Shown: piece after piece, positions 35,596 to 53,910 of the stretch
Position numbering within the stretch: position 1 is the first letter of the stretch
How the letters are laid out: every line of letters begins with the position of its first letter
Origin: an uncultured bacterium
GTDB taxonomy: Bacteria > Poribacteria > WGA-4E > GCA-2687025
Length of the DNA stretch: 64,000 bases
Direction of reading: 5' to 3'
NCBI GenBank assembly: GCA_964473525.1
Contig: CAYYPK010000017.1
Span: 1,992-65,991 of the forward strand
Made by a program: the position numbers and the translations under genes
Notes under the pieces: model-generated
Told to the model about the DNA's origin: nothing
Database searches by the model: none
The model's input: only the letters and a program-made list of their open reading frames with translations

Positions 35596-36483
35596 ATGCC
35601 TGACGACCATCGGGCAGACCATCCCACGACGGACGACACCACCGTCGTCGCGGCGCCGTCGGAAGGCCCGGGGGAAGAGACCGACCTGCGCACTCGCATG
35701 CGCCAGTTCTACGGATCCTCCGAGACGTACAAGGGGCTGCTCGACGCGCACGACGAGGCGTACGCCGCCCCGTACGTCGGCCTCGTGCGCAAGTACGCAG
35801 AGGACCGTTCGCGCCTGCTGGAACTCGGCGGCGGCAACGGTATCGCCTCGCGAATGCTTGCTGATAGTGGGTTCCAGGTAGTGGGCACGGACCTGTCACC
35901 GCTGTTCCTGCGCGAGGTAGGCGGGTGGGCGCGCAAGGGTCTCGGCTACGCGGTCTGCGACGGGTTCGAACTGCCCTTCGCGGACGCCTCGTTCGAGGTC
36001 GTCTGCTCCAACGAGTACCTCGAGCACGTCCCAGACGCCCAAGCGGCGCTCGACGAGATGACGCGCGTCACCGCTCCTGGTGGGCGCGTCATGGTGATGG
36101 GACCCAATCTCTGCTCCCCCTTCCTGCCGTTCCGCGAGGGGTTGCAGGCGTTGCGCGGTCACCACGCCGGGCTCATCTGGACAGACGGCCCGCGCGACGC
36201 GTGGCGCAAGACACTCGCCAATGTCGCGCTCATCAACGACAAGAAGCGGCGCACGACACCGCAATTCCTCCACCGTACGCCGGACCTCGAGGACCGAGTC
36301 ATCGGGGGTGACGCGGACAGCGCGTATCTCGCGACGCCTGCCGACATGGAGAGCTACTTCGCGGCGCTCGGGTGGGACACCATCGCGCTGGCGTCCGGCG
36401 GGAGCCGCAAGGGACGCCTGATAGCGTCGCTGATGCCGCGCTTCGCGCCCTACCTTTCGGTGATCGCGCAGAAGCCGGGGTAG
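35596..36483 (+). CDS. Class I SAM-dependent methyltransferase
   Basis: LELGGGNGIASRMLADSGFQVVGTDLS (motif I) and FEVVCSNEYLEHVPDAQAALDEMTRVTAPGGRVMV (Methyltransf_11-like). Confidence 0.8.
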   Translation: MPDDHRADHPTTDDTTVVAAPSEGPGEETDLRTRMRQFYGSSETYKGLLDAHDEAYAAPYVGLVRKYAEDRSRLLELGGGNGIASRMLADSGFQVVGTDLSPLFLREVGGWARKGLGYAVCDGFELPFADASFEVVCSNEYLEHVPDAQAALDEMTRVTAPGGRVMVMGPNLCSPFLPFREGLQALRGHHAGLIWTDGPRDAWRKTLANVALINDKKRRTTPQFLHRTPDLEDRVIGGDADSAYLATPADMESYFAALGWDTIALASGGSRKGRLIASLMPRFAPYLSVIAQKPG

Positions 36484-36524
36484 AGCGGCGGCGCGAGTCA
36501 GCAATTGACTCCCCGAGCGGCAGA

Positions 36525-36554
36525 CGCGAAAAGGGTCTGTCCGAAGACAGACCC
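36525..36554 (-). terminator. Intrinsic terminator for minus-strand gene 36584..37306. Hairpin plus T-tract on the minus strand.
   Basis: A perfect 9-bp stem, gggtctgtc (36533-36541) and gacagaccc (36546-36554), with a cgaa loop. It is flanked by aaaa at 36529-36532, which reads as TTTT after the hairpin on the minus strand. Confidence 0.55.
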
Positions 36555-36583
36555 CTCTCACGAACTGTCGTTCGGCCGCGTCT

Positions 36584-37306
36584 CTAGCGGTTGGACTTGA
36601 GGTCGCCCCACAGAACGCTGGTCTTACCCTTGGCCTCAACATCGCTGATGATGCCGTAGAACTCGCCATCCTCGTCCGGGGCAATGCCCAGGTTGTCAGC
36701 GTCGAACGCAACGTTGACGTAAGCGGAACCACCGGACTCACCGCACTTGAACAGCATGACGTTGTCGCCAGCGTTCAGGTCGATGTCCGTCGGGGTCGTG
36801 ACGGTGCGGACGCCGCCGGTCCACTGGTCGTTGTCGTAGACCTGCTCGCCGTTGAGCCAGATCTGGAGGTAGTCGTCGTGCGCGGGCTGCATCGTGGTCG
36901 TCTGCGCGCCAGGCGAGCCAACTACGATGATGCCGTACCACTCAATGTCATCGGATCCAGCGTCAAGGCCCCAAGACGTGGCCATGTTGTCGCCATCGTT
37001 TGTATCGATGGTGACATACTGCCAGACGTGGTCGCCGCCGTAGTCGGCCAGGTCAACCACCATGCTCTGGGTCGCGCCAACGCCAGACAACGTCGAGACG
37101 CTCTCGTGCGTGTGCGCTCCGCCAGTGCCCTCACTGATGAAGTCAATCAGGCCGGCGGCGGCGAATCCACCGTTGTTCTCGATGATCTCGAGTCCCTGCC
37201 AACCCTCCACCCACATGTCCGGGCCACTGCCCTGCCTGGCAGCCATCGCGCCGGTCGTGACCAAACCCAGCGCCAAGGCGCCGGCTATGAGCCATGTGCT
37301 CTTCAT
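36584..37306 (-). CDS. Secreted beta-sandwich protein of unknown family (paralog A of three). Signal peptide and a C-terminal WGDLK tail.
   Basis: A 240-aa product with signal peptide MKSTWLIAGALALGLVTTGAMA. Conserved blocks shared with paralogs B and C include NNGGF, MQPAHDDY.QIWLNGEQVYDN..WTGGV.TVT.PT and FKCGESGG. The C-terminus is ...TSVLWGDLKSNR. Confidence 0.75.
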   Translation of the reverse strand: MKSTWLIAGALALGLVTTGAMAARQGSGPDMWVEGWQGLEIIENNGGFAAAGLIDFISEGTGGAHTHESVSTLSGVGATQSMVVDLADYGGDHVWQYVTIDTNDGDNMATSWGLDAGSDDIEWYGIIVVGSPGAQTTTMQPAHDDYLQIWLNGEQVYDNDQWTGGVRTVTTPTDIDLNAGDNVMLFKCGESGGSAYVNVAFDADNLGIAPDEDGEFYGIISDVEAKGKTSVLWGDLKSNR

Positions 37307-37444
37307 GCGTGCGTTTCTCCCGTTGAAAGTTTGAGCAACAGGACCGGATTAGCGGGATGCGCCCGGCCGTTACCCACGTAGGCCGCTGGCGTGAACCAGC
37401 AACGAGACACGTTACCACGTATCCGCAGGTATCCGCAGTGGCCG

Positions 37445-38197
37445 CTAGCGGCTCTTGAGAGCTCCCCACACGGTCGAGACCTTATCCTGCGCCTCTACCG
37501 CGAGCCCGGCGTACTTCCAGAACTCGTCGTCCATCGTCGGGACAATGTCGAGGTCGCTGTCGCCGTCCTCGAAGTGCAGGTTCACGTAGTCATCTCCGCC
37601 CGACTCGCCGCACTTGTAGAACAGGACGTTGTCTCCCTTCAGCAGGTCGACCTCGGTCGGCTGCGTCACGGTCTTGACGCCACCAGTCCAGTCCGGGTTG
37701 TCGTACACCTGCTCGCCGTTCAGCCATATCTGGGCGTAGTCGTCGTGGGCGGGATGCATCGTCGTCTGCCGAGCGCTGGGCGCCTTCAGGACGATGATGC
37801 CGTGCCACGTGAAGTCGGACTGGTCGACGAGGCCCCAACTGGACGACATGTTGCGACTGTCGTCCACGTTAATCGTCACGACCTCCCAGTCCCAGACGCC
37901 GTCCTCGCCCATTCCCTGACCAGAGTGGGCGTCGTCCAGCACGATCTCCGTCCTGTCGAGCAACCGAATGCCTTCGGTCGTGGACAGGAGTTCGTTCGTC
38001 AGGTCGCCACCGGTGGCGTCGGCGAAGTAGTCGACAGCTCCAGCTACATTGTGGCCGCCGTTGTTCATGACGTTTTCCATGGAGAACCACTTGGCGATCC
38101 ACTCGTCGCTGGCGGTCTTCTGGAAGTCGACGGCGCGGGCGGGCGAGACGGCGATGACGATCAGGAACGCGAGACCAAAGATAGCGCTTCGGCGCAT
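37445..38197 (-). CDS. Secreted beta-sandwich protein of unknown family (paralog B)
   Basis: A 250-aa product with signal peptide MRRSAIFGLAFLIVIAVSPARA. It shares the same conserved blocks and ends ...VSTVWGALKSR. Confidence 0.75.
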   Translation of the reverse strand: MRRSAIFGLAFLIVIAVSPARAVDFQKTASDEWIAKWFSMENVMNNGGHNVAGAVDYFADATGGDLTNELLSTTEGIRLLDRTEIVLDDAHSGQGMGEDGVWDWEVVTINVDDSRNMSSSWGLVDQSDFTWHGIIVLKAPSARQTTMHPAHDDYAQIWLNGEQVYDNPDWTGGVKTVTQPTEVDLLKGDNVLFYKCGESGGDDYVNLHFEDGDSDLDIVPTMDDEFWKYAGLAVEAQDKVSTVWGALKSR

Positions 38198-38317
38198 ACA
38201 AACTCCTCCTTATGAACCCGGCGCCGCGCGGCGCGGCGCATGCGATCTGGGCCTGCGTCGACGCGCGATGCGACGGCAAGCCTACCACAGGATACGACAT
38301 ATGGCTCGCAGATGTAA

Positions 38318-38361
38318 CACAACGCCGGGCTTGACCACGGTTGATCTCGCCCGGCGTTGTG
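38318..38361 (-). terminator. Long GC-rich hairpin between paralogs C and B. Candidate terminator or attenuator.
   Basis: A perfect 13-bp inverted repeat, cacaacgccgggc (38318-38330) and gcccggcgttgtg (38349-38361), encloses an 18-nt loop. No clear U-tract. Confidence 0.35.
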
Positions 38362-38392
38362 CGATGTCGTAGACGGTTCTGTCGGCGCGGGG

Positions 38393-39148
38393 CTAGCGAG
38401 TCTTGATGTCGCCCCAGGTCGTGGCGGCCTTGTCATGCGCTTCGACGGCCAAGCTGGTGTGCTTCCAGAACTCACCGTCCTCGGTGGGGACGATGTCCAT
38501 ATCGCTCTCGCTGTCCTCGAAGTGCAGGTTCACGTACGCGGAGCCACCGGACTCACCGCACTTGAAGAGCAGAACATTGTCACCCTTGACGAAGCTTACG
38601 TCCGTCGGAGTGGTGACGGTGCGAACGCCGCCGGTCCACTGACTGTTGTTGTAGACCTGCTCGCCGTTGAGCCATATCTGAGCGTGGTCGTCGTGCGCGG
38701 GGTGCATGGTGGCATCCCTGTTCTTCGACGACTTCATAATGATGATGCCGTACCACTCGATGTTGTCGGTCGCGGCCTGCAAGCCCCACGAGGTCGCCAT
38801 ATTGTCACCATCCTGCGTATTGATGGCTTTGACTTCCCAGTCCCACACGCCGTCTTCACCCATGCCGTTGCCGGCGTACTTCTTGTCAAGCTCTACCGAC
38901 GCCTTGCTCAGGGCGGCCAGCCCGCTGGTCGTTGACGCGGTTTCGTGGGTGACGTCCCCGCCAGTTCCGTCAGAGATGAAGTCGATCACGGCGGAGGCCG
39001 CGAAGCCACCGTTGTTCATGACGACTTCCATTGAGAGCCACTGCTCGATCCAGCCGTCGTCGCCCGTGTGCTGAAAGTTGACCGCGAAGGCCGAGGAGGC
39101 CGCGAAACCGGTAGCGAGGGCCGCACACAGAATCAGGTGCTTCCGCAT
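38393..39148 (-). CDS. Secreted beta-sandwich protein of unknown family (paralog C)
   Basis: A 251-aa product with signal peptide MRKHLILCAALATGFAASSAFA. It shares the same conserved blocks and ends ...ATTWGDIKTR. Confidence 0.75.
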   Translation of the reverse strand: MRKHLILCAALATGFAASSAFAVNFQHTGDDGWIEQWLSMEVVMNNGGFAASAVIDFISDGTGGDVTHETASTTSGLAALSKASVELDKKYAGNGMGEDGVWDWEVKAINTQDGDNMATSWGLQAATDNIEWYGIIIMKSSKNRDATMHPAHDDHAQIWLNGEQVYNNSQWTGGVRTVTTPTDVSFVKGDNVLLFKCGESGGSAYVNLHFEDSESDMDIVPTEDGEFWKHTSLAVEAHDKAATTWGDIKTR

Positions 39149-39292
39149 AGAGATCTCCTTACTTACGTCGGTCGACGAACGCTAACAAGAGGCGGTGCCG
39201 GCGCACGCTTCGGCCGTCACCCCCTTGATTACGATACCAATCTGGACGCGCCAGGTCAAGGCGCTACCTGTGGCAAGCCGCGTGCCATCTCG

Positions 39293-39321
39293 GTTGACAG
39301 CCCGTGAGCCGCCTCCTATAC
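39293..39321 (+). promoter_or_regulatory. Near-consensus sigma70 promoter upstream of the FAH-family gene
   Basis: TTGACA (39293-39298), an exact 17-nt spacer, then TATACT (39316-39321). It lies about 48 nt upstream of the ATG at 39369. Confidence 0.5.
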
Positions 39322-39368
39322 TCACGGTTCCACCAGCCAGTAAAGACACATGAGGCGAGTAGCAGAGC

Positions 39369-40355
39369 ATGGGCACGTTCGTTCGATTCCTGGGCGATGA
39401 CGGCGTTGCGACGTGGGGTGTGGTAGACCAGTCCGACGCCGAAGGACACGCGTCAGGCACGCTCCTAGACGATGTGCCGGCCGAGCACGACCCGGGGTAC
39501 TGGCCAGCGTTGCTAGCCGCCTTTGACGACCCGTCAGGGGGCGAGCCGTTCCATGCCGAGTCAGGCATGATCGTGTCGCCGGTGGGTAGGCCGCCGCAGA
39601 TCCTCGCCATCGGCCTCAACTACCAGGACCACCTGGACGAGATCAACGACGCCAACGCCGCGTCCGGCGCGCCCATCATCCCACAGCCGACCGAACCCAC
39701 TGTGTTCGTGAAGTTCCCGGCGTCCGTCGTCGGGCACGAGGACGCCATCGTCATCCCGCGGATGGCTCCCGCGCAGGTGGACTACGAAGCGGAATTCGCC
39801 GTCGTCATCGGTCGCGAAGCGCTCAACGTGGCGCCGAACAACGCCCTGGACTACGTGGCGTTCTACACGTGTGGTCACGATGTCAGCGCGCGCGATGCGC
39901 AGTTAGAAGCTCCCAACGGTCAGTGGGCGCGCGGCAAGTCATTCGACACCTTCTGTCCGCTTGGACCCTACGCGGCGACCGACCTCGACCCGTCCGGTCT
40001 CGACATTCGCCTCATCCTGAACGGCGAGGCGATGCAGACATCGAACACGCGCCATCTGATCTTCGACGTGCCGACCCTCATCTCCTACCTGTCTCATAAC
40101 ATGACGCTGCTGCCCGGAACGGTGATCATGACCGGCACGCCAGGCGGCGTCGGCCACTTCATGGACCCACCGGTCTACCTCGTTCCAGGCGATGTCACCG
40201 AGGTGCATATCGAGGGCATCGGGCGGCTGCGGAATGACGTGGTCGGAGACGAGACCTCGGGCTACACGCCAGCTACCGCGTTCGCGGGGCCGATGCCAGA
40301 GCCGCGTCCGACAGGTCAGGTTCAGGACGAGGACCAGGACGAAGACGAGGTCTGA
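39369..40355 (+). CDS. Fumarylacetoacetate hydrolase (FAH) family protein
   Basis: AIGLNYQDHLDE...FVKFPASVVGHEDAIVIP...DYEAEFAVVIGREA...GKSFDTFCPLGP...PGTVIMTGTPGGVG are conserved FAH-family blocks. An acidic low-complexity C-terminal tail overlaps the convergent MFS gene by about 34 nt. Confidence 0.85.
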   Translation: MGTFVRFLGDDGVATWGVVDQSDAEGHASGTLLDDVPAEHDPGYWPALLAAFDDPSGGEPFHAESGMIVSPVGRPPQILAIGLNYQDHLDEINDANAASGAPIIPQPTEPTVFVKFPASVVGHEDAIVIPRMAPAQVDYEAEFAVVIGREALNVAPNNALDYVAFYTCGHDVSARDAQLEAPNGQWARGKSFDTFCPLGPYAATDLDPSGLDIRLILNGEAMQTSNTRHLIFDVPTLISYLSHNMTLLPGTVIMTGTPGGVGHFMDPPVYLVPGDVTEVHIEGIGRLRNDVVGDETSGYTPATAFAGPMPEPRPTGQVQDEDQDEDEV

Positions 40356-41569
40356 GCCGACTCGCCAGGCGCGCGCAACAGCAGCCCGAGCGCAACGCCG
40401 GACAGGATTAGGAAGCCGCTTGCTGCGCGGAACACGACGGGAAGCCCCAGATTCCCGGCGATGTACCCGCCGATGGGTGGCCCGACGATACTGCCAAACG
40501 CGCCAGCGAGCTGTAGCATCCCCATGGCCGTTCCACGGGCGGACGGCTTCACCAGATCCGTGATGAGCGCCACGCTGACGATGCTGCCCGCCAGACCGAG
40601 CCCCCACATAGCCTGAGCCACGGCAATCCACGCGAGACTCGAAGCGACGCCCAGGAGGGCGTATCTCGCTCCCGCCGCGATGGACGAGAAGACGAGCAGG
40701 GGCTTCCTGCCTAGCCGATCCGACGCGCGGCCGAGCAGGATGATCACGGGGATCTCGACGACCGCGGCCAGTCCCATCATACGCCCAATCCACGCCTTGG
40801 ACATGCCGAACGTCTCGTCGAGATGGTTGGCGTAGAACTGCATCCCCATCGAGCTGCCGATCGAGCCGAATGCCACGCACGCGTAGAGGACGATGAGGTT
40901 CCTCTCGCGCAACACCTCGCGCCACGCGCCCCAGGGCGATGTCGCCGCCTCTCGCGCGGGTGGCTCGTGGATTCGGGCGCGGGCGAACAGGGCGCAGCCC
41001 AGGTAGATGACCGCCCCTGAGAGGAACGCCGTCGCATACGACGTGTCGCGAGCCACGAGGGGGAGGAGACAGAGGCTCGTGATGGCGAACCCGACACTCC
41101 CGGAAACGCGATAGACCCCATACTGCTTGCCGCGCGAGCCGTCGTGCAGCGTCGTCGTGACGAGGGCGCCTATGTTGAGGCTGTACGCGACCGTGGACGC
41201 GGCGAGGGCGAAGGTGGCGGCGGCGAGCGACCAGAAACTACGGGACGCCAGATGCAGCCCGGTGGCGGCCGCCGATATGGCAAGCCCGGTCACGATCCAC
41301 GGCTTGCGGCGCCCGGAGCCGTCCGACAGCACACCAACGACGATGGGCACTGCGGATGTTGTCGCCGACCGCACGAAGCCCAGCCAGCCAATCTGCTGGA
41401 GGCTCAGGCCGATCCAGGGAGCCCGGTAATAAAGACTGCGCAGCGGCCACACGATGCCCGCGGCGGTACCGAGGGCGACGGTGAGGAACCAGCATGCGCG
41501 AAAGTCACGCGACTGCCAGCCAGACCCCTCGGTCTCCCTGTTCGATGGCTGTGTGTCCGACGGTGGCAC
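40322..41569 (-). CDS. MFS transporter (paralog 1 of 3)
   Basis: A 415-aa product with about 12 predicted TM segments and MFS signature loops GVLSDGSGRRKPWI and LGRASDRLGRKP. It is highly similar to the next two genes. Confidence 0.8.
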   Translation of the reverse strand: MPPSDTQPSNRETEGSGWQSRDFRACWFLTVALGTAAGIVWPLRSLYYRAPWIGLSLQQIGWLGFVRSATTSAVPIVVGVLSDGSGRRKPWIVTGLAISAAATGLHLASRSFWSLAAATFALAASTVAYSLNIGALVTTTLHDGSRGKQYGVYRVSGSVGFAITSLCLLPLVARDTSYATAFLSGAVIYLGCALFARARIHEPPAREAATSPWGAWREVLRERNLIVLYACVAFGSIGSSMGMQFYANHLDETFGMSKAWIGRMMGLAAVVEIPVIILLGRASDRLGRKPLLVFSSIAAGARYALLGVASSLAWIAVAQAMWGLGLAGSIVSVALITDLVKPSARGTAMGMLQLAGAFGSIVGPPIGGYIAGNLGLPVVFRAASGFLILSGVALGLLLRAPGESAQTSSSSWSSS

Positions 41570-41581
41570 GATGCTGGATCT

Positions 41582-42844
41582 CTATGGCGTGCGCGTCGGC
41601 GCCATCGAGGTCGGCAAGGGAGCGTTCGCCTCTGCCGACCGCGGCGGACGGAGGAACAGCAGCAGCCCGACGCCACCGGCGACAGCGAAGCCGCCACCCA
41701 CGCGGAACACGACGGGGAGGCCGATGTTCTGCGCGATGTATCCCCCTACGGGCGGCCCGACAATGCTGCCGAACGCCCACGAGAGCTGTAGCATCCCCAT
41801 CGCGCTGCCCCGCGCGGCAGGTCGCACGAGGTCCGTGATGAGGGCGACACTTACCGTATACCCGGCGAAGCCGAGCCCCCACATCACCTGCGCCACAACA
41901 ACCCACGAAACGTCGGGAGCAATTCCCACCAACGCCCAACGCACGCCGCCGATGATGAACGTGAACACGAGGATCGGCTTCCTCCCCCACCTGTCCGACG
42001 CGCGACCGAGGAGGATGAGAGCAGGAATCTCGATCACCGCGGCGAGGCCGATGATTCGGCCGATCCACGCCTTGGACAGATGGAACGTCTCGTCCAGGTG
42101 GTTGGACATGAACTGCATGCCCATCGACGTGCCGATGGAACTTACCGCCATGAACACGTACAGCACGACCAGGTTGCGCTCGGACAGCACCTCTCTCCAC
42201 GCGCCCCACGGCGACGCGGCGTGCTCTTTGGCTGGCTCCTCGCGAACGCGTAGCGCCGCGAGGACCATGCACACCAGATAGATGCCTGCGCCCGTCAGGA
42301 ACGTAGCCGTGTACGTAGGGTCCATCGTGGCGACGGGTATGATGACAAGGCTTGCCGCAGCGTAGCCGATGCTCCCGGATACGCGGAAGATGCCGAACTG
42401 TCGGCCTCGGGCGTTGTCGTGCAGCGTCGTGGTCACGAGCGCGTTCACGTTGACGTTGTATGCAACGAAAGCCATCGTCGTGACGAACGTCACGGCGGCC
42501 AGGGACCAGAAGCTGCCGGCGAGCAGGTAGAGCGCCACGCCCACGCTGGACAGCGCGAATCCGCCCACGATCCAGGGCTTACGGCGCCCGGAGCCGTCGG
42601 AGAGGACACCGATGAGCACCGGCAGCGCCGCCATCGTCACGGATCGGACGAACCCCAGCCACCCAACCTGCTGTAGGCTCATGCCTACCCACGGCTCACG
42701 GAAATACAGGTTTCGCAGAGGCCACACGAGACCCCACGCGATGCCGAAGGTGGCGGAGATCATCCAACACGTGCGGAAGTCCCGCGAGCGCCAGACGGAC
42801 GGCGCCGGCTCCTGGCTCCTCGCGGATGTCCCGGACGGTGGCAA
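41582..42844 (-). CDS. MFS transporter (paralog 2 of 3)
   Basis: A 420-aa product with the same architecture and motifs (GVLSDGSGRRKPWI, LGRASDRWGRKP). Confidence 0.8.
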   Translation of the reverse strand: MPPSGTSARSQEPAPSVWRSRDFRTCWMISATFGIAWGLVWPLRNLYFREPWVGMSLQQVGWLGFVRSVTMAALPVLIGVLSDGSGRRKPWIVGGFALSSVGVALYLLAGSFWSLAAVTFVTTMAFVAYNVNVNALVTTTLHDNARGRQFGIFRVSGSIGYAAASLVIIPVATMDPTYTATFLTGAGIYLVCMVLAALRVREEPAKEHAASPWGAWREVLSERNLVVLYVFMAVSSIGTSMGMQFMSNHLDETFHLSKAWIGRIIGLAAVIEIPALILLGRASDRWGRKPILVFTFIIGGVRWALVGIAPDVSWVVVAQVMWGLGFAGYTVSVALITDLVRPAARGSAMGMLQLSWAFGSIVGPPVGGYIAQNIGLPVVFRVGGGFAVAGGVGLLLFLRPPRSAEANAPLPTSMAPTRTP

Positions 42845-42894
42845 GTTGAGGTTCTCCTCGACCAGGCTGGCGCAGGCTCAGCCCTCGTGTGGGC

Positions 42895-44121
42895 CTAGCC
42901 CGCCTGCGGCGCGGTGGACGGCGCCCGAAGAAAGGCTAGCAGGCCCACGCCACCCAGGATCGCAACGCCTCCGCCAATCCTGAACACGACGGGCAAGCCT
43001 ACGTTCTGCGCGATGTACCCGCCTACCGGCGGGCCAATGATGCTTCCTACGGCCCAGGACAGTTGCAGCATACCCATGGCGCTGCCGCGTGCTGCGGGCT
43101 TGACCAGATCCGTGATGAGCGCGACTCCGACCGTATAGCCCGCGAAGCCCATGCCCCACAGAAACTGAGCGGCCACGACCCATCCGAGCGAAGGGGCCAG
43201 GCCGATGAGCGTCCAGCGCACGCCGCCCATGATGAACGCGACGACGAGAATCGGCTTGCGCCCCCAGTGGTCCGACGCCCAGCCAAGCGCAATCAGCGCG
43301 GGTATCTCCAGCAACGACGCCAGGCCGACAATCCGCCCTATGGACGCCTTCGACATGCCGAACGTCTCGTCGAGGTGATTCGACAGGAACTGGAAGCCCA
43401 TCGACGTGCCGATGGAGCTGACCGCCAGGCAGGTGTACATCACGACGAGGTTGCGCTCACGCAGCACATCTCGCCACGCGCCCCACTGTGAGCCGGACTC
43501 CCGGGGCGCCGGCGTTTCTTTGATCCCCAGGGACGTCACAACCAGGCAGCCCAGGTAGATCGCCGACCCGGTAAGGAACGTGCTAGCGTAGGTCGTATCG
43601 CGCGCCACCAGTGGAATCAGCGCGAAGGTGGCAAGAGCATAGCCGATGCTTCCCGACACGCGGTATTGGCCGTATTGGCGCCCGCGCGCGTTGTCGTGCA
43701 GCGTCGTCGTCACGAGGGCGTTGACGTTCAGGTTGTAGGCGATGAACGCCACGGCGATGAGGAACGTGACCCCCGCGAGCGTCCAGAACGTGTGGCTGAC
43801 GAGGTATAGGGCGGTCGCCGCGCTGGACAGCACGAAGCCAGCCATGATCCACGGCTTGCGGCGGCCCGAGCGGTCGGAGAGAATCCCAAACGCAAGGGGT
43901 ACGGAAGCCATCGTCGCGGATCGCACGAACCCTAGCCATCCGATCTGCTGAAACGTCAGCCCGACCCATGGCTCGCGAAAATAGAGACTACGCAGTGGGA
44001 ACACGATGCCCCACGCCACGTTGAACAGGGCCGTGAGACCCCAGCACACCAGGAAGTCGCGCGAACGCCACACCGACGTGGCGGGCCGAGAGTAGGGCGG
44101 TTCTGATCCAGGCAGGGACAA
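42895..44121 (-). CDS. MFS transporter (paralog 3 of 3)
   Basis: A 408-aa product with the same architecture and motifs (GILSDRSGRRKPWI, LGWASDHWGRKP). Confidence 0.8.
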   Translation of the reverse strand: MSLPGSEPPYSRPATSVWRSRDFLVCWGLTALFNVAWGIVFPLRSLYFREPWVGLTFQQIGWLGFVRSATMASVPLAFGILSDRSGRRKPWIMAGFVLSSAATALYLVSHTFWTLAGVTFLIAVAFIAYNLNVNALVTTTLHDNARGRQYGQYRVSGSIGYALATFALIPLVARDTTYASTFLTGSAIYLGCLVVTSLGIKETPAPRESGSQWGAWRDVLRERNLVVMYTCLAVSSIGTSMGFQFLSNHLDETFGMSKASIGRIVGLASLLEIPALIALGWASDHWGRKPILVVAFIMGGVRWTLIGLAPSLGWVVAAQFLWGMGFAGYTVGVALITDLVKPAARGSAMGMLQLSWAVGSIIGPPVGGYIAQNVGLPVVFRIGGGVAILGGVGLLAFLRAPSTAPQAG

Positions 44122-48032: not shown

Positions 48033-48764
48033 ATGTCGCACGATCTGACACCCGAACAGGTGGAGCAGTTCCGCGAGGACGGCTACCTCGGCCCCTTCGA
48101 GCTATGCCCGCCCGACGAGATGGCGCGCATCGCCGCGCGTGTAGACGCCGAAGTGCTTGCAGGCGAAGCCCCGCCACAAGGGCATCACCAGTCCCGGCAT
48201 CTAGACAGCCGGGTGGTCTACGACCTCTGCGCTCATGAAGCGATAGTGTCTCGCATGGCCAGCGTCTACGGGCCTGACCTGCTTCTCTGGCGTTCCCACT
48301 TCTTCCTGAAAGAACCGGGAGCGGCGGAAGTGCCGTGGCACCAGGATACGAACTACTGGCCGCTGGAGCCGCCGCTGAATATCTCGGCGTGGGTCGCTAT
48401 CGACGACGTGACGGTCGAGAACGCGTGCGTCAACATCATCCCCGGGTCGCACCAGAGCGTTGTCCCGCACGTACGCTCCCCGGAAGGGATGCTCTTCGCG
48501 GAGATGGCGGACATGGACTACATCGACACCTCGACGGCTGTCCCGATGGAACTGCGCGCCGGGGAGTTCTTCCTCTTCAACGAGCGCACGGTGCATCAGT
48601 CGGAGCCGAACCGCTCCGACCGCCGGAGGCTGGGGCTCGCGGTACGCGTGACGACGCCGATCGTCCGGGTGGACCACCGACGCCTCTTTCCGGGTCACAA
48701 GGCCGTCCCGCTGTGCGGCGAGGACCGTATGGACCTCAACGAAGTCGGCGCCCCGCCGGACTGA
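48033..48764 (+). CDS. Phytanoyl-CoA dioxygenase (PhyH) family Fe(II)/2-oxoglutarate oxygenase
   Basis: WHQDTNYWPLEP fits the HxD region, and IIPGSHQ places the distal His in a PhyH-like context. Confidence 0.8.
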   Translation: MSHDLTPEQVEQFREDGYLGPFELCPPDEMARIAARVDAEVLAGEAPPQGHHQSRHLDSRVVYDLCAHEAIVSRMASVYGPDLLLWRSHFFLKEPGAAEVPWHQDTNYWPLEPPLNISAWVAIDDVTVENACVNIIPGSHQSVVPHVRSPEGMLFAEMADMDYIDTSTAVPMELRAGEFFLFNERTVHQSEPNRSDRRRLGLAVRVTTPIVRVDHRRLFPGHKAVPLCGEDRMDLNEVGAPPD

Positions 48765-48773
48765 CGCCGTTGC

Positions 48774-49586
48774 CTACAGTGCCACGTTCTCGGGGCCGAA
48801 GTAGTCGTTTGGCTGCGCCTTCGAGAAGTCGTGATGCCACACGCCTCGGAATAGCGTCCTGCGTTTCGGGGGCATCGCCCCAATCACCTCGGTCGGCAGA
48901 TTCAGCTTGTGGTACTGCGCGTCGGCGTTGCTGTAGCAGTTGAAGACGGCAACGCGCGGGTTCTCCTTCGTCTTCCACACCGGGCCAGCGTGGTTCACGC
49001 TTTCAGAGAAGATGATCGCCGACCCGGGGGGACACTCATACGTCTCGAACAGCGGGGAGTCGAAGCCCTGGTGCGACTCGGGGATCGGGAAGTTCATCTT
49101 GTGACTGCCGGACATGACGAGCGTGCCGCCCTCGCCCTTCCGCACGGGGTTGAGCTCCCACGCCACCCGCGTCAGGCCGCTGTAGATGCTGCCGTTCTGG
49201 TAGGAGTACTTGTGGACTCCTACTCCGAGGCCGCCGCCGTGCGGCTCGAGTCCCACCTGCCCCTCGCTGCGGATCATCGGGAAGCTATTCTCGCATCGGA
49301 AGCCGTAGCACCCTTCGTGACGGTCGCCGCCCAAGACGCCACGCAGGATCGTCACGATCGCTGGGTGGTCCACCAGCACTTGGGCAGGGCCGCTTAGCGA
49401 GTATCGGTCCTTCGGGTCAAGGCTGTCGCGGTCGTCCCGTAGCGCGTAGACGTGCTCGCGGATGGCGGCTACCTCGTCCGCGGCGAGTATGCCGGGAAGC
49501 AGAAGCCACCCTTTCAGGTCGAAGACGAACTTCTGCTCGTCGGTCATCGGCAGCGCGGCGTCGAGGGGGTGATCTTCGTAGGCCAC
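48774..49586 (-). CDS. PhyH-like/cupin-fold hypothetical protein (paralog 1 of tandem pair)
   Basis: A GTG start at 49584-49586 is preceded by aggaga. This gives VAYEDHPLDAALPMTDEQKFVFDLKGW..., collinear with the paralog's MTYEDHPADAALPMTDEQKFIFDLKGW. The longer track ORF to 49727 adds an Arg-rich extension judged spurious. The iron-binding motif is non-canonical (LEPHGGG ... SGSHK). Confidence 0.55.
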   Translation of the reverse strand: MAYEDHPLDAALPMTDEQKFVFDLKGWLLLPGILAADEVAAIREHVYALRDDRDSLDPKDRYSLSGPAQVLVDHPAIVTILRGVLGGDRHEGCYGFRCENSFPMIRSEGQVGLEPHGGGLGVGVHKYSYQNGSIYSGLTRVAWELNPVRKGEGGTLVMSGSHKMNFPIPESHQGFDSPLFETYECPPGSAIIFSESVNHAGPVWKTKENPRVAVFNCYSNADAQYHKLNLPTEVIGAMPPKRRTLFRGVWHHDFSKAQPNDYFGPENVAL

Positions 49587-49660
49587 GAGGGTCTCCTGGG
49601 TCAGGGCGAGTAGCGGACGCAGAGATCCTCTCGCCAGGCTTCTCCGCGCTCGCGCGTGCG

Positions 49661-50467
49661 CTACAGGGCCACGTTCTCGTCGCTGAAGTAGTCGTTCGGC
49701 TGCGCCTCGGCGAAGTTGTGATGCCACACGCCTCGGAAGAGCGTCCGACGCTTCGGGGGCATCGCCTCAATCACCTCGGTCGGCAGGTTGAGCTTGTGGA
49801 ACTGCGCGTCGGCGTTGCTGTAGCAGTTGAACACGGCGACGCGCGGATGCTCCTTCGTCTTCCACAGCGGGCCAGCGTGGTTCACGCTCTCGGAGAACAT
49901 GATCGCGGAACCCGGCGGGCACTCGTACGTCTCGAAGAGCGGGGAGTCGAAGCCCTTGTGCGACTCGGGAATCGGGAAGTTCATTTTGTGGCTGCCAGAC
50001 ATGACGAGCGTGCCGCCCTCTCCCTTCCGAACCGGGTTCAGCTCCCACGCGACCCGGGTGAGGCCACTGTAGATGTCGCCATTCTGGAAGGAGTAGCTGT
50101 GCAGGCCTCTGGGGCCTGCGTGAGGTACCAGCCCGACTTCCCCCTCGCTGCGGATCATCGGGAAGCTGTTCTCGCACCGGAAGCCGTAGCAACCGTCATG
50201 GCGGTCCGCGCCCAGCACCCCGCGCAACACCGAGACGATCGCGGGATGGTCCACCAGGATCTGCGCCGGGCCGCTGAGCGAATAGCGGTCCTTTGGATCA
50301 AGGCTGTCGCGGTCGTCCCTCAGCGCGTAGATGTGCTCACGGATAGCGGCCACTTCGTCGTCCGCAAGCAGTCCAGGGAACAGGAGCCACCCCTTCAGGT
50401 CGAAGATGAACTTCTGCTCGTCGGTCATGGGTAGGGCGGCGTCGGCTGGGTGGTCCTCGTACGTCAT
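49661..50467 (-). CDS. PhyH-like/cupin-fold hypothetical protein (paralog 2 of tandem pair)
   Basis: A 268-aa product about 80% identical to the adjacent paralog. Confidence 0.65.
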   Translation of the reverse strand: MTYEDHPADAALPMTDEQKFIFDLKGWLLFPGLLADDEVAAIREHIYALRDDRDSLDPKDRYSLSGPAQILVDHPAIVSVLRGVLGADRHDGCYGFRCENSFPMIRSEGEVGLVPHAGPRGLHSYSFQNGDIYSGLTRVAWELNPVRKGEGGTLVMSGSHKMNFPIPESHKGFDSPLFETYECPPGSAIMFSESVNHAGPLWKTKEHPRVAVFNCYSNADAQFHKLNLPTEVIEAMPPKRRTLFRGVWHHNFAEAQPNDYFSDENVAL

Positions 50468-50828
50468 GTCTTTCCTCCTCTGTCGTCCGGGGAGGCGAGC
50501 ATACGCGTCGCGCGGCGTCGCTGCAAACCGCCTTGAACGGCGCCGCCGGCCTCGGAGGATCTGTCGGCCGAAGTCCGACGGTCCTGGACGGTAGATGCGA
50601 CAGCCGGCGCGCGGCCCAGCATGGCCTGCGAGGCGACGTTGGAAGCACGTGGTTCACGAAGCAGGCGATCCCCCGAATAGAGAAGGACATCCTTGCCTGC
50701 CACCGGTACTGGGCGGTCACCGGCCGAGAGTGTCAGGTTGCGCGAGTGAGGGCAGGGAAACTATACTCTACACTGGTGTAACTGGGTGTGGGGCCGACAT
50801 GGGGTCATCCGTTCGTGGAGGCGAGGAT

Positions 50829-51875
50829 ATGCTGTCGGAGCACAGAACACCGCAACGACGCGAACATCCGCAGGCAGGGAGGCCATGCCACGTGGTCGGT
50901 CTGCTGTCTCTGCTTGTGCTGTTGGCAGCGGCCGCGCACGCACGCTCCCACGGGGAGCTGATCCTGTACGAGCACATCACCGGCCCCCGCGACGATCGCG
51001 AATACAGTCTCCGCACGATGGCTCCGGACGGTTCGAACGATACGTGGCTGGCGGTGGGGTTCGCGCGCGGACACGACTGGTCGCCCGACGGGTCGACGAT
51101 TGTGCTGGCAGGACTCGAGGTGATGTCGACGCTACGATGCGACGGCACGATGGTCTCGCAAACGCCCCTTCCACCCGGCATGGGGTCCGCCGAGCCCGCA
51201 TGGTCGCCAGACGGACTTAGAGTTGCGTTCTGGGCCGAAACCCGCGGACTCACGCATATCTGGATGCTGGAGTTGGCCACCGGCGCCCTTGTGGACCTCA
51301 CTGTGCCACAGGTACCCGCACGCATCCCAAGGGAGCACAGCCCGTCGTGGTCGCCCGATGGGACGCAGCTTGTGTACGACTCAAGCCGCGATCGGGAGTT
51401 CTGGTTGCGGCCCGAGGGTGACCCTCGTGGCGCGGCGCTGACGGCGGACCTGCACATCATGACGGATGCTGGCGCCCACGTGGTAAACCTGACGCAGAGC
51501 CTGGACCACGAGTACGATCCTGCGTGGTCGCCGGCTGGCCATGAGATCGCGTTCCTCAGACGTCCCGAAGGCGGCTTCGCATCCGTGTTCGTACTCGACA
51601 TCGACGCCGGAACCGAGTGGCGACTCACCGACGACGACATAGGGGCGCGGGACCCCTCGTGGGCGCCAGATGGACAGCGCATCGTCTTTGCGGCATTCGA
51701 CGCCAAGAACCCGTCGGGGTGGGACATCTTCGTGGTTGATCGCGACGGCGGCGCCCTGGCTCAGATCACCGACCACGGAGGCGAGTTGGCGCGGCGGCCC
51801 ATATGGTTCGATCCCGGCCTCGACGCATCCGCGGCGGGAAAGCTGCCCACCATGTGGGGAGAACTGAAATGGTGA
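50829..51875 (+). CDS. Secreted TolB-like WD40/PD40 beta-propeller repeat protein (paralog 1)
   Basis: The start is ATG 50829 with ggagg 7 nt upstream, in frame inside track ORF 50595..51875. The signal peptide is MLSEHRTPQRREHPQAGRPCHVVGLLSLLVLLAAAAHA. Repeated WSPDG motifs (DWSPDGS, PAWSPDGL, PSWSPDGT, PAWSPAGH, PSWAPDGQ) mark the PD40 repeats. The C-terminus is ...AAGKLPTMWGELKW. Confidence 0.7.
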   Translation: MLSEHRTPQRREHPQAGRPCHVVGLLSLLVLLAAAAHARSHGELILYEHITGPRDDREYSLRTMAPDGSNDTWLAVGFARGHDWSPDGSTIVLAGLEVMSTLRCDGTMVSQTPLPPGMGSAEPAWSPDGLRVAFWAETRGLTHIWMLELATGALVDLTVPQVPARIPREHSPSWSPDGTQLVYDSSRDREFWLRPEGDPRGAALTADLHIMTDAGAHVVNLTQSLDHEYDPAWSPAGHEIAFLRRPEGGFASVFVLDIDAGTEWRLTDDDIGARDPSWAPDGQRIVFAAFDAKNPSGWDIFVVDRDGGALAQITDHGGELARRPIWFDPGLDASAAGKLPTMWGELKW

Positions 51876-52951
51876 CACGAGCGACGAGGCTACGGATGCG
51901 ACACTGGGGCCGGGGTAGCGTGGGTCGCGTAGGCATCTGCATCGCCGTCGTCCTTGCGCATGTCATCTTCGCCGGTAGCGTCCTGGCACGCCCGCAGACC
52001 CCGCTGATCGTGTACCAGCATATGGTTAGGAGGGGAGACGACCTCGCGGTCAACCTGCGCACGATGGAGCCGGACGGCTCGAACGACAAGTGGCTCGCGA
52101 AGGACGGGTGGCAGCCGGGCCCCGACTGGTCGCCCGACGGTTCCCGCATCGTGCTGGGTTCGGCAGAGAACGTGTTGGTGACAATGCGTTGTGACGGGAC
52201 GGATCGCAGGGCAATCGGGCTCCCCGAAGGCGTTCGGCCCATGGAACCGAGGTGGGCGCCAGACGGACGCCGTGTGGTCTTCTATGCCTATGTTCCCATC
52301 GCAGTGGCCAACTGGCGCCCACACGTCTTCGTGCTGGACACGGCTACTGAGGCGCTGACGGATCTTACCGAGGCAATCGGAGGGGACCTCCTATGGGATG
52401 AACGCCCACACTGGTCTCCCGATGGGACGCGGATTGTGTTCGATTCGCTACGGGACAGGGAGTTCTGGGCGGAACAGCCAGACGCTGCGAAGCAGAAGGG
52501 CGCCCTGACCGCGGACCTGCATGTGATGACGGCTGACGGCGTCTACATCCGTAACCTCACGCAGAGCAAGGACAGCGAGGAGGATCCCGCATGGTCGCCC
52601 GACGGTGAGTTCATCGCGTACACGTGGAGGGGGCCCAACGCCAGTCCACCGCAAGTAGGGGTACGGGATGTCGCGACGGGTCGTACCCGACTACTCACCG
52701 AGCCCGAGCTGTGGGCAAGTGATCCGTCCTGGTCCCCGGACGGCGGGCGGATCATGTTCTCCGCAGCTGAATCGAGGAATCTAGCCAAGGGCTCGAACGT
52801 ATTCGCGATAGGCCGGGACGGCGGGAATCTGACCCAGCTCACCCACTACGAGTGGGAGTCCGCAAGAGAGCCAGCTTGGTTCGATCCTGGCCTCGCGGTA
52901 TCTCCCGCAGCGAAACTGCCGACGATGTGGGGCGAACTGAAGTGGTGGTAG
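51869..52951 (+). CDS. Secreted TolB-like WD40/PD40 beta-propeller repeat protein (paralog 2)
   Basis: The ATG at 51869 follows ggggaga and overlaps the previous stop (aaATGgTGA). The signal-like N-terminus is MVTRATRLRMRHWGRGSVGRVGICIAVVLAHVIFAGSVLA. It has the same WSPDG repeats and ends ...AAKLPTMWGELKWW. Confidence 0.7.
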   Translation: MVTRATRLRMRHWGRGSVGRVGICIAVVLAHVIFAGSVLARPQTPLIVYQHMVRRGDDLAVNLRTMEPDGSNDKWLAKDGWQPGPDWSPDGSRIVLGSAENVLVTMRCDGTDRRAIGLPEGVRPMEPRWAPDGRRVVFYAYVPIAVANWRPHVFVLDTATEALTDLTEAIGGDLLWDERPHWSPDGTRIVFDSLRDREFWAEQPDAAKQKGALTADLHVMTADGVYIRNLTQSKDSEEDPAWSPDGEFIAYTWRGPNASPPQVGVRDVATGRTRLLTEPELWASDPSWSPDGGRIMFSAAESRNLAKGSNVFAIGRDGGNLTQLTHYEWESAREPAWFDPGLAVSPAAKLPTMWGELKWW

Positions 52952-53193: not shown

Positions 53194-53910
53194 TTAGTCG
53201 CTGGCTGCATCCTCGAGGAGTCCGGCGATCTCCTCGCGGGGCATGCGGCGGAACTTGCGGCGGCCGCGGCTTTCGGCGAGCGTCGCGACCTCGAGTCGGT
53301 CGGCTGCGAGTCTGTCGTCCTCACCTTCGCTCTCGCGCGTGGCGTCGAGCGCTTGCACGCCCAGGCGAACAACATCCGGCAGCGACAGGTCGTCCTCGTA
53401 TCGCTCGGCGAGCCACTCCCGGATCTCCTTCGCCTTCCCGCCTATGACGGCGGTCTTCTCGTCGTCCGCGAGAATGCCGTTGTACGAGATGCGGTACAGG
53501 CGATTGGTCGAGTAGCCGGGCTCACCGAGCTCGGCGATGAGGAGTTCCACCTCGAAGGGCTTCGTATCGAACTGGCGCCATACGCCGCCGATGTACTGCG
53601 AATACAGGTTGGCGAGCCATCTCGCCGTGACATCCTCGCGGCTGTACGTGTACCCCTTGACCTCGGCTTGCTCAATGCCGATGGTGCGCATCACCTCGTA
53701 TTCCTGGATGTTCCCGACGGCGGCGAGGGAGAGGCGATCGTAGATCTCTGACACCTTGTTCAGCGTGCGGCTGGCGTTCTCGGCAACGAAGGCGATGCCA
53801 CCCTCGTAGTCCATCGCGATGACATCTCGCCCGAACTGCACGCCCTTCCGGGCGAGTTCGTCCTTCTCGGTCATGATCTGTTCGGGCGACGCGAAGATGG
53901 GCGATGCCAT
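53194..53910 (-). CDS. prcA: 20S proteasome alpha subunit
   Basis: A 238-aa product. It lies immediately downstream of prcB on the same strand, and its length and sequence blocks (YDRLSLAAVGNIQEYEVMR...ELLIAELG) resemble bacterial PrcA. Confidence 0.8.
   Translation of the reverse strand: MASPIFASPEQIMTEKDELARKGVQFGRDVIAMDYEGGIAFVAENASRTLNKVSEIYDRLSLAAVGNIQEYEVMRTIGIEQAEVKGYTYSREDVTARWLANLYSQYIGGVWRQFDTKPFEVELLIAELGEPGYSTNRLYRISYNGILADDEKTAVIGGKAKEIREWLAERYEDDLSLPDVVRLGVQALDATRESEGEDDRLAADRLEVATLAESRGRRKFRRMPREEIAGLLEDAASD

Follow-up and report, generated by a model that had tools for sequence, protein, structure and literature searches.

On balance, the evidence favors reading three adjacent genes in the analyzed window, a 64,000-nucleotide stretch of poribacterial DNA, as an anciently triplicated array from a family confined to Poribacteria, in which each gene encodes a Sec-exported, PA14-like protein of ~225 mature residues that would bind carbohydrate and that carries a C-terminal tail with a putative sorting or anchoring role. 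Poribacteria are uncultivated and abundant symbionts of sponges with free-living marine relatives, and to our knowledge it is largely unknown how their cell surface is built and how it interacts with the host matrix or with marine glycans. The array points to secreted PA14-like proteins that are specific to this phylum and nearly universal in it, and that are reasonable candidates for recognizing glycans at the surface of the symbiont. The positions of the features discussed below are collected in Table 1.

Table 1. Features of the array and of the two other tail-bearing genes, numbered along the window
Feature	Position	Strand	Remarks
Gene C	38393..39148	-	ORF, 251 aa; signal peptide, N-terminal subdomain, predicted PA14-like jelly roll, C-terminal tail
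Gene B	37445..38197	-	250 aa; paralog, 58% identical to C
Gene A	36584..37306	-	240 aa; most divergent paralog, 56% identity to C and 47% to B
Signal-peptide-like segment, gene C (MRKHLILCAALATGFAASSAFA, followed by V)	39083..39148	-	Read directly from the sequence
Signal-peptide-like segment, gene B	38132-38197	-	Equivalent to that of gene C
Signal-peptide-like segment, gene A	37241-37306	-	Equivalent to that of gene C
PA14-like/galactose-binding-like beta-sandwich core, gene C (predicted)	38504..38851	-	~Residues 100-215
Asp153-Asp154 of gene C (HPAHDD)	38687..38692	-	Candidate equivalent of the PA14 Ca2+/sugar-binding DD motif
C-terminal tail, gene C (LAVEAHDKAATTWGDIKTR plus stop)	38393..38455	-	
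C-terminal tail, gene B	37445-37507	-	Equivalent to that of gene C
C-terminal tail, gene A	36584-36646	-	Equivalent to that of gene C
Promoter-like TTGACC-17 nt-TATCGT (TG-extended)	39231..39259	-	~83 nt ahead of the ATG of gene C; consensus scan
GC-rich hairpin	38318..38361	-	31 nt past the stop of gene C; no clear U-tract; partial terminator or 3'-end stabilizer
10-bp tandem duplication (CTGCGGATAC x2, coding strand)	37419..37438	-	Directly follows the stop of gene B
Strong hairpin after gene A	36525..36562	-	Between the convergent gene A and methyltransferase gene; terminator-like
First PD40/TolB-like beta-propeller gene, ends ...WFDPGLDASAAGKLPTMWGELKW	50595..51875	+	Tail carrier; P0264
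Second PD40/TolB-like gene, ends ...VSPAAKLPTMWGELKWW	51803..52951	+	Tail carrier; P0257

The three-gene array and its family

A search of all ORFs of the window with the family HMM returns exactly three copies, here denoted C, B, and A (E = 2e-106 for gene B), and the product of gene C is 100% identical to cluster P0001. A Shine-Dalgarno-like site precedes the ATG of each of the three by 6-9 nt. The first-pass annotation described them as co-directional genes of about 240-250 aa, paralogs encoding secreted beta-sandwich proteins with about 50-60% identity, which is borne out with the correction that they lie on the minus strand; the measured pairwise identities are close to that estimate, at 47-58%. 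The conserved blocks that it listed are present, in the forms HPAHDD[YH][AL]QIWLNGEQVY, WTGGV[RK]TVT.PT, and [FY]KCGESGG, and only the block NNGGF has to be shortened, NNGG being invariant and followed by Phe in C and A and by His in B. A GMGEDGVWDW loop is absent from gene A. The N-termini of the three paralogs are signal-peptide-like and end in AxA (AFA before V, ARA before V, and AMA before A, respectively), that of gene C comprising a basic n-region, a hydrophobic core, and the AxA site, with no lipobox Cys.

The same C-B-A order occurs in a related lineage (L005, ~75% identical), whose orthologs are 74, 72, and 74% identical to the window proteins C, B, and A, with dN/dS values of 0.19, 0.25, and 0.25, respectively. 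The three genes are real and under purifying selection, and their order is older than the split between the two lineages, the triplication thus being ancient. At 41 positions the conserved residue is paralog-specific, including the loop deletion and changes adjoining the CGESGG motif, and the three paralogs may have diverged in ligand or partner preference.

The family is unnamed and is found only in Poribacteria: all 242 matches in species-representative genomes belong to Candidatus Poribacteria. No Pfam or NCBIfam model scores above threshold for the three window proteins, the precomputed Pfam entry is '-' in all but one fragment among 110 homolog clusters, and the only source name of the homologs is 'hypothetical protein', so that the earlier description as an unrecognized family stands. 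Neither the family nor the tail is described in the literature that we searched on Poribacteria combined with C-terminal/sorting, the tail motif, or PA14. Distant relatives carry this domain in fusions with dockerin, cohesin, LRR, reprolysin, and T9SS CTD domains, and sulfatase, FGE-sulfatase, and BNR genes are found close to the family gene in one relative locus (L007). The immediate neighbors of the array in the window (FAH, three MFS transporters, a methyltransferase, and a prolyl oligopeptidase) give no functional hint.

Predicted fold

The AlphaFold model of the gene C product (pLDDT 86.5, pTM 0.82) is a galactose-binding-domain-like jelly roll that most closely resembles PA14 lectin domains and the N-terminal sugar-binding domains of GH2 enzymes. 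The top Foldseek matches are Cea1A, RsgI PA14, CBM35, MpPA14, Flo5, and Epa1, with E-values of ~1e-4, TM-scores of only 0.35-0.49, and ~120-130 of the ~225 mature residues aligned; CBM6 and the GH2 N-terminal domains are further structural neighbors. The predicted structure thus shows the beta-sandwich of the PA14 type. At the level of profiles, Pfam PA14 (PF07691) is a recurrent but weak signal, seen in 34 of 52 family members at E <= 1 with a best E of 8.5e-5, and the three window proteins, at 14.2, 13.1, and 14.7 bits, stay below its gathering threshold of 24 bits. A two-domain member (P0129) that scores 29.3 bits with PF07691 was considered as a bridge to PA14 and was down-weighted, because the score sums two stretches, neither of which passes alone. 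Profile searches of the PDB with profiles of 3, 52, and 32 sequences gave nothing significant, the hits to GH2-N and RsgI3 PA14 having E ~0.1; a match to Dph2 in these searches is attributed to chance. According to the model, the protein is a galactose-binding-domain-like jelly roll that follows a family-specific N-terminal subdomain, with PA14 and GH2-N as its nearest predicted relatives.

We have also considered that the proteins are jelly rolls of the ConA/LamG type, for example similar to DUF1080/3-keto-disaccharide hydrolases and possibly enzymes, as the first-pass annotation had guessed in part. Both folds are jelly-roll beta-sandwiches, and faint PF06439 matches occur in 5 of the 52 members (best E 0.0076) and as stretches in some distant relatives. 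However, the sequence signal is that of PA14, the structural neighbors belong to the galactose-binding-domain-like group, and neither a Pfam match nor ConA-like fold neighbors place the proteins in ConA/LamG or PF06439, the latter being absent from all three window proteins in the Pfam search. This possibility is already largely refuted, and we give it very little credence. The confident match to a characterized family such as DUF1080 that, by the first-pass annotation's own account, would overturn its view of an unrecognized family did not appear, the PF06439 matches all having E-values of at least 0.0076.

The Asp-Asp motif and the putative binding of glycans

The structures of Flo5, Epa1, and MpPA14 have a Ca2+-binding 'DcisD' at the start of the central strand. 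An Asp-Asp pair is invariant in 52 of 52 family members, and in the profile alignment it falls on the 'TDD' of the RsgI3 PA14 domain, 'TVTDDGVRLWVDG'; at the sequence level, the conserved Asp-Asp that marks the start of the central strand in PA14 is thus present in the family. The pair is not universal among the distant multidomain relatives. By analogy with the PA14 lectins, the family proteins probably bind sugar, and the domain would do so most plausibly through a Ca2+ ion held by the two Asp residues.

A different role was also weighed, in which the domain would be no lectin but a surface module for structure or protein binding, for instance a subunit of a coat or for adhesion that partners with an FG-GAP/ASPIC protein, and in which the Asp-Asp pair is structural only. 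An FG-GAP/ASPIC gene does adjoin the family gene in most Poribacteria. However, the two genes are convergent and therefore do not form an operon, the pairing may be inherited synteny only, and in the window the three genes persist with no ASPIC neighbor. Furthermore, the conserved Asp pair together with the hydrophobic strand that follows it corresponds to the PA14 sugar/Ca2+ motif. We consider the structural role unlikely, and binding of carbohydrate is the reading retained here.

Spacers and transcription

The array would probably be transcribed from the predicted promoter upstream of gene C, at the aligned position of which L005 has TTGACG-17-TACCGT. The first-pass annotation assigned a hairpin and a structured spacer to each gene, which holds after genes C and A but not for the spacer between B and A, which, taken over its full length, shows no significant structure (z = -1.5). 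The hairpin after gene C is real, with a stem of 14 bp instead of the 13 bp claimed, and the 93-nt segment that contains it folds with -42.5 kcal/mol (z = -4.9 versus shuffled controls). After gene A, a hairpin plus T-tract terminator had been placed at 36525-36554; the hairpin is likewise real and somewhat longer (z = -5.9 versus shuffled), but the T-run has only 4 T. On the minus strand, both have T-runs too short to be flagged by a terminator scan, and they were established by repeat search and folding.

In L005, hairpins occur at the same positions after C and A with a different sequence, the spacer identity being 29-52%, as expected for terminators. Both look like ordinary terminator-type structures, conserved in position and not in sequence, and the one after C would act as a partial and the one after A as the final terminator. 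The 10-bp repeat was confirmed at the exact position previously given. It was compared in four contigs (L001-L004) with identical protein and ~100% identical DNA, which are therefore useless for judging spacer conservation and which revealed an indel hotspot after gene B: the repeat is single copy in L004, and other indels are found in L001-L003. It is a polymorphic slippage site, that is, a strain-variable indel and not a conserved element, and would be without function.

The stability of the two hairpins, far above that of shuffled controls, and the differences between strains in the spacer after gene B could also be explained if the hairpins and the repeat belonged to a regulatory RNA, or to a mobile repeat element, that drives the array or controls it. 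Such a role is most improbable, given that Rfam has no family match within 36300-39500 at E <= 1, that the hairpin after C is unrelated to the one after A, that neither is conserved in sequence in the orthologous array, and that the repeat is present in one or two copies in near-identical strains.

The C-terminal tail

The most unusual element of the locus, under-weighted by the first-pass annotation, is a phylum-wide, modular C-terminal signature. The WGxLK tail had been noted in all three proteins, and each indeed ends in WG[DA][IL]K. The complete tail is ~20 residues long and follows the pattern (L)-x-V-E-P-x-G-K-L-x-T-x-W-[GA]-x-[LIV]-K-[RK]-x, the consensus after the Trp being [AG]-[DE]-[LIV]-K-[RK]-x, after which the protein ends. 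It is found on all 108 family ORFs examined and on 72 ORFs of other families, with 179 C-terminal occurrences observed and 0.42 expected. A signal-peptide-like N-terminus is present in 176 of the 179 carriers, and the distance of the Trp from the end is 6 residues in 123 of them and 5-7 residues in 161.

Outside the family, the tail occurs on exported poribacterial proteins that are unrelated to the family, of the PD40, Kelch, LamG, and ConA-like types (five carrier domain types were counted, with PD40, Kelch, Laminin_G_3, and GH43_C2 outside the family). Two PD40 carriers are encoded in the window, for which the database gene calls are 327 aa with a start near 50892 and 343 aa with a start near 51920, respectively. 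Of 120 homologs of the window PD40 protein, 104 have no tail, among them every homolog named as another phylum; the 8 closest do carry it. A close family member (P0115) has a cohesin, a dockerin, and a FlgD_ig CTD in place of the tail, and its contig also encodes a LamG protein that carries the tail. The gene B product of L001 and L003 continues by read-through for 11 residues beyond the tail; unless this allele is defective, such an extension is not what one would expect of a signal that has to be strictly terminal.

In the AlphaFold model of gene C, the tail has a pLDDT of ~50 and is therefore not packed on the domain; a short helix is drawn at residues 245-250. Isolated tail peptides have no match in NCBIfam, and no sorting-domain model of Pfam or NCBIfam matches the tail. 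The possibility that it is a cargo-targeting peptide of a bacterial microcompartment or encapsulin was rejected, since a signal peptide is present at the N-terminus of almost every carrier.

The tail is read here as a candidate phylum-specific sorting or anchoring signal. In its full form, which we advance tentatively and with slightly less than even confidence, this proposal sees in the tail an undescribed, Poribacteria-wide signal with no transmembrane segment that puts beta-rich binding proteins (PA14-like, PD40, Kelch, LamG, and ConA-like) on the surface. After Sec export, the tail would be a linear signal read in trans, and its recognition by a receptor or a processing enzyme would route the proteins to, or anchor them at, the envelope or surface.

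The tail might instead not be a sorting signal and act as an autonomous amphipathic anchor in the membrane or LPS, or as a C-terminal tag for quality control by a periplasmic protease or chaperone. The drawn helix is consistent with an anchor, and in K-L-x-T-x-W-x-x-[LIV]-K-[RK] the Leu, the Trp, and the Ile/Leu, at i, i+4, and i+7, would form one helical face between basic residues; in addition, no dedicated machinery was found for the tail. However, the helix is predicted with the same low pLDDT, and the near-invariant positions go beyond hydrophobicity (G-K-L, the Thr at -2, the Trp, Gly/Ala at +1, and Lys at +4), which, together with the fixed distance of the Trp from the C-terminus, points to specific recognition by a protein. 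We therefore regard an anchor or quality-control tag as rather improbable. If the tail were only a conserved anchor helix, the result would be a new PA14-like family with tandem paralogs, of use for annotation and otherwise unremarkable.

The tail marks a defined subset of the exported proteome. As a sorting signal, it would be a new sorting tag with no transmembrane segment in a didermic lineage, and would allow the surface proteome of Poribacteria to be predicted by a simple sequence rule and give a handle for finding the export or anchoring machinery.

Comparison with known systems

Compared with the PA14 lectins (PF07691; Flo5, Epa1, the Cea1 A-domains, the PA14 domains of the Marinomonas primoryensis ice adhesin/RTX adhesin, and RsgI PA14), the family has an identity of only 6-13%, with sub-threshold scores, and differs by a ~75-residue N-terminal subdomain (WIxKW, NNGGF, EGTGG, STxxG) before the core. 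Unlike the PA14 domains of giant adhesins, the family proteins are small and stand alone, with a C-terminal tail. With respect to GH2-N (PF02837), CBM35, and CBM6, they have no attached glycoside hydrolase catalytic domain; the GH2 arrangement of a jelly roll N-terminal to immunoglobulin-like and TIM-barrel catalytic domains is not found, PF02837 does not detect the window proteins, and the GH2-N domains lack the Asp-Asp motif that the family has.

The tail resembles the LPXTG, PEP-CTERM, and GlyGly-CTERM signals in being short, lineage-restricted, and present on otherwise unrelated exported proteins. However, a signal of the sortase type has three parts, namely a motif, a transmembrane helix of hydrophobic residues, and a cluster of basic ones, whereas the Trp of the tail is followed by 5-7 mostly polar or basic residues and no hydrophobic helix; the transmembrane segment and basic tail of the sortase, exosortase, and rhombosortase signals are thus missing.

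As concerns the T9SS, C-terminal domains of this type are known in Poribacteria, for which no T9SS structural (Por) genes were detected in single-cell genomes, and the pathway for the CTD-bearing proteins was noted as unexplained (Kamke et al. 2014, PMC3909097). Like the T9SS CTDs (PF18962, PF13860, TIGR04183), the tail occupies the extreme C-terminus of proteins that are exported by Sec and differ in their functional domains, and it ends in a Lys-rich [LIV]-K motif. Unlike them, it is disordered and ~20 residues long, and is not the Ig-like beta-sandwich of ~70-100 residues (Por_Secre_tail/FlgD_ig) that defines a T9SS CTD. Its role would be comparable to that of the T9SS-type CTD that occupies its place in the close relative P0115; the tail could be a minimal functional counterpart of the T9SS CTD, and the three paralogs diversified lectin cargoes of such a pathway.

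The array and its age

The proteins encoded by the three tandem genes C, B, and A (array order C-B-A) are best described as a Poribacteria-specific, secreted, PA14-like family, and the three-gene array is old and has been maintained. In the 64-kb window, the family HMM detects three copies and no more, with pairwise identities of 58% (C/B), 56% (C/A), and 47% (B/A). All three contain the blocks HPAHDD[YH][AL]QIWLNGEQVY, WTGGV[RK]TVT.PT, and [FY]KCGESGG and end in WG[DA][IL]K plus 2-3 further residues, so that the paralogy, the conserved blocks, and the shared C-terminal tail noted in the first-pass annotation all hold. Its NNGGF block needs a small correction: NNGG is invariant, while the following residue is F in C and A and H in B. 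A Shine-Dalgarno-like sequence lies 6-9 nt 5' of each ATG, and the N-termini, as read from the sequence, show a basic-hydrophobic-AxA, Sec-type pattern without a lipobox cysteine, as is typical of Sec signal peptides processed by signal peptidase I. The G+C (0.61-0.62) and GC3 (0.83-0.87) of the genes show no sign of a recent foreign origin of the array.

Coordinates of features in the window and in related contigs (L001, L002, L005, L007)
Feature	Position	Strand	Remarks
Gene C	38393-39148	minus	251 aa ORF
Gene B	37445-38197	minus	250 aa ORF
Gene A	36584-37306	minus	240 aa ORF
GC-rich hairpin, 14-bp stem	38318-38361		z = -4.9 vs dinucleotide shuffles
Hairpin between convergent gene A and methyltransferase gene	36525-36562		z = -5.9; four T after stem
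10-bp tandem duplication	37419-37438		exact position
Promoter-like TTGACC-17-TATCGT	39259-39231	coding strand of array	~83 nt upstream of gene C
Gene B 3' indel hotspot	window 37419-37447; L001 about 10470-10510; L002 about 11700-11760
FG-GAP/UnbV_ASPIC gene	L005 10655-12145; L007 8799-10451

In two NCBI MAGs labeled Candidatus Poribacteria (L005 and L006), the three genes occur in unchanged order beside an FAA-hydrolase gene and three MFS transporter genes, as in the window. Each window paralog is most similar to the gene at the same array position (C 74%, B 72%, A 74%), the non-counterpart paralogs being 46-63% identical; the triplication is therefore older than the split from the L005-type lineage. 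All three genes are under purifying selection, with ortholog dN/dS values of 0.19 (C), 0.25 (B), and 0.25 (A). When the ortholog groups are compared, 41 positions are constant within each paralog group and differ between groups, among them a deletion of the GMGEDGVWDW loop specific to A and changes at the two residues following CGESGG, a pattern consistent with functional divergence.

Tandem arrays of 2-4 family genes were found in 17 of the loci examined. A more divergent subfamily with the same domain forms a tandem triple (241, 257, and 246 aa) at 1385-3809 of a contig with 42.5% G+C (L091), each member having a signal peptide and the tail, which shows that tandem multiplication of tail-bearing PA14-like genes recurs.

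Spacers and promoters

The paralogs had been described as separated by structured intergenic regions. Both hairpins and the 10-bp repeat are present; the B-A spacer taken as a whole, however, is not structured above chance (z = -1.5), and an Rfam search of the array region gave no family match. In the orthologous array of L005, the spacers are 29-52% identical to those of the window, and a strong hairpin is again found 3' of gene C and of gene A. The hairpins thus stay in place while their sequences diverge, as expected of terminators or 3'-end stabilizing hairpins, and we regard them as ordinary.

In four contigs (L001-L004) from other marine metagenomes, gene C is identical to that of the window, and the locus is ~100% identical except directly 3' of the gene B stop. 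The 10-bp unit is present once in L004, 24 bp are added after the stop in L002, and L001 and L003 read AAG for the TAG stop, which adds 11 residues (…ALKSRKWPLAAAADTW) and buries the tail. The repeat is thus a hotspot prone to slippage rather than a conserved signal. The indels fall within the first 30-60 nt past the stop, at short GC-rich direct repeats, in strains that are otherwise identical.

The promoter-like site upstream of gene C is the only one found on the coding strand, and L005 has TTGACG-17-TACCGT at the aligned position. A near-consensus sigma-70-type promoter, TTGACA-17-TATACT (11/12), lies at 39294-39322 (+) upstream of the divergent FAA-hydrolase gene (39369-40355), and its sequence block is kept in L005.

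Genomic neighborhood

An FG-GAP/UnbV_ASPIC (CRTAC1-like) gene directly adjoins the family gene in 64 of 82 poribacterial loci, L005 included, and is usually convergent; its product may be a partner, or the arrangement may be mere inherited synteny. This neighbor is missing beside the array of the window, where a methyltransferase and a prolyl oligopeptidase gene come after gene A, so a rearrangement breakpoint is placed just downstream of gene A (~36.5 kb). In 29/82 loci, one to five PD40-tail genes are arrayed within 6 kb, typically divergent and directly upstream; in many sponge-associated Poribacteria such arrays of 1-5 genes stand directly 5' of the PA14-like gene. The sponge-associated relatives are surrounded by sulfatase, FGE-sulfatase, and BNR genes.

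The region 40322-44121 (-), just upstream of the array, contains three MFS transporter paralogs in tandem (415, 420, and 408 aa); the block is kept with the array in L005, and a fourth MFS gene lies further along related contigs. At 53194-54824 (-), two adjoining genes with matches to Pfam Proteasome subunit (E 1e-14 and 2e-39) resemble the alpha/beta pair of a bacterial 20S proteasome.

Family membership and host lineage

The family is unnamed, as had been proposed. Pfam PA14 matches its most conserved block below threshold (13-15 bits vs 24), and an NCBIfam search of the window proteins gave no match. A search of 5.8 billion proteins returned 110 clusters, all but one fragment without a precomputed Pfam domain, and where a name is given it is "hypothetical protein [Candidatus Poribacteria bacterium]". 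With one genome scanned per GTDB species, 242 matches were confirmed; among the best 80 of these, all named records are poribacterial, the sponge single-cell genome WGA-3G among them, and a few records are labeled just "uncultured bacterium".

The window is closest to the water-column MAGs ARS61 (79%) and co234_bin45 (76%). Its G+C is ~65%, slightly lower over the array (0.63-0.64 at 36000-40000) than in the flanks (0.65-0.67). Three PhyH-like (phytanoyl-CoA dioxygenase) genes lie at 48033-50467, two of them close minus-strand tandem paralogs. Pfam PhyH is confirmed for two of the three; 48774-49727 has no Pfam match at E <= 1e-5, yet it is a clear sequence paralog of 49661-50467. A phyH expansion in Poribacteria (Kamke et al. 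2014, PMC3909097) and free-living "Pelagiporibacteria" (PMC8546597) have been described, and the window appears to fit both, as judged from its nearest relatives rather than from a phylogeny.

The C-terminal tail

The unusual element of the locus is the phylum-wide tail, a stretch of ~20 C-terminal residues conserved in essentially all full-length family members, with the consensus L-[TP]-[PV]-V-E-P-x-G-K-L-[AT]-T-[TQ]-W-[AG]-[DE]-[LIV]-K-[RK]-x. In ~1.06 Mb of poribacterial loci scanned for W[GAS]x[LIVM][KR] within the last 12 residues, the pattern was found in 108/108 family ORFs and in 72 ORFs from other families, namely PD40/TolB-like propellers, Kelch propellers, Laminin_G_3 proteins, and one GH43_C2 ConA-like protein. 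For ORFs >= 150 aa, 179 C-terminal occurrences were observed vs 0.42 expected from the internal frequency (16 matches in 334,605 residues). In 123 of these carriers the Trp stands 6 residues from the C-terminus, and 176/179 have a signal-peptide-like N-terminus.

The window itself contains part of a second tail-bearing family, a tandem pair of slightly overlapping paralogous PD40/TolB-like ORFs at 50595-52951 (+) ending in ...WFDPGL...KLPTMWGELKW(W). In a homology search with one of these proteins, all eight closest homologs carry the tail. Among the homologs listed, 104/120 lack it, including every one named Acidobacteria, Actinobacteria, Anaerolineales, Rokuibacteriota, or Gaiellaceae. The tail has no match among the NCBIfam models, and no account of it was found in a literature search.

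Five unrelated folds thus carry the tail, which is disordered in the model and was found here solely in poribacterial sequence. Because of these properties, together with the fixed C-terminal distance and the coupling to signal peptides, we infer a linear signal that is recognized in trans after export and most likely serves in sorting or anchoring to the envelope. That it is an autonomous amphipathic anchor is a live alternative, and we hold the reading as a new sorting signal tentatively, at somewhat less than an even chance.

Fold and putative ligand site

The AlphaFold2 model of gene C, built on a 52-sequence family alignment, is of high confidence (mean pLDDT 86.5, pTM 0.82) and has a partly helical N-terminal subdomain, a beta-sandwich at ~residues 100-220, and a low-confidence stretch over the last 20 residues, which together with the signal-peptide-like N-termini agrees with the earlier description of secreted beta-sandwich proteins. 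The concanavalin/LamG-like jellyroll suggested at the same time is made very unlikely by the structural neighbors and the Pfam matches. Foldseek against the PDB retrieves the Ca2+-dependent PA14 lectins Cea1A, Flo5, and Epa1, the Marinomonas and RTX-adhesin PA14 domains, the RsgI PA14 domain, and CBM35/CBM6 modules (E 8e-5 to 1e-3, TM-scores 0.35-0.49). PA14 is also the recurrent weak Pfam match, in 34/52 members (best E 8.5e-5), vs 5/52 for the 3-keto-disaccharide hydrolase model. A broader profile reaches weakly to both a GH2 N-domain and RsgI3 PA14 in the PDB, and its alignment places an Asp-Asp pair, invariant in 52/52 family members, on the PA14 "TVTDDGVRLWVDG". The family thus belongs with the galactose-binding-domain-like jelly rolls, as a branch that is new and divergent and has PA14 as its nearest relative.

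An exhaustive profile search gave 1077 proteins at E <= 1e-3, and the core (profile positions ~45-195) recurs within proteins of up to 3330 residues, partnered with dockerin, cohesin, LRR, reprolysin-type peptidase, and T9SS-type C-terminal domains. These architectures are extracellular throughout, which supports an extracellular binding role for the core. One close family member (P0115, L090 5001-6812) has cohesin, dockerin, and a FlgD_ig/T9SS-type domain in place of the tail; the same contig encodes a Laminin_G_3 protein with the canonical tail (8889-9737), so two C-terminal systems coexist in one genome.

In Flo5, Epa1, and MpPA14, the Ca2+ to which the sugar hydroxyls bind is held by the corresponding Asp pair. 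By analogy with these lectins, the family proteins are probably Ca2+-dependent glycan binders, with the invariant Asp-Asp as the putative ligand site.
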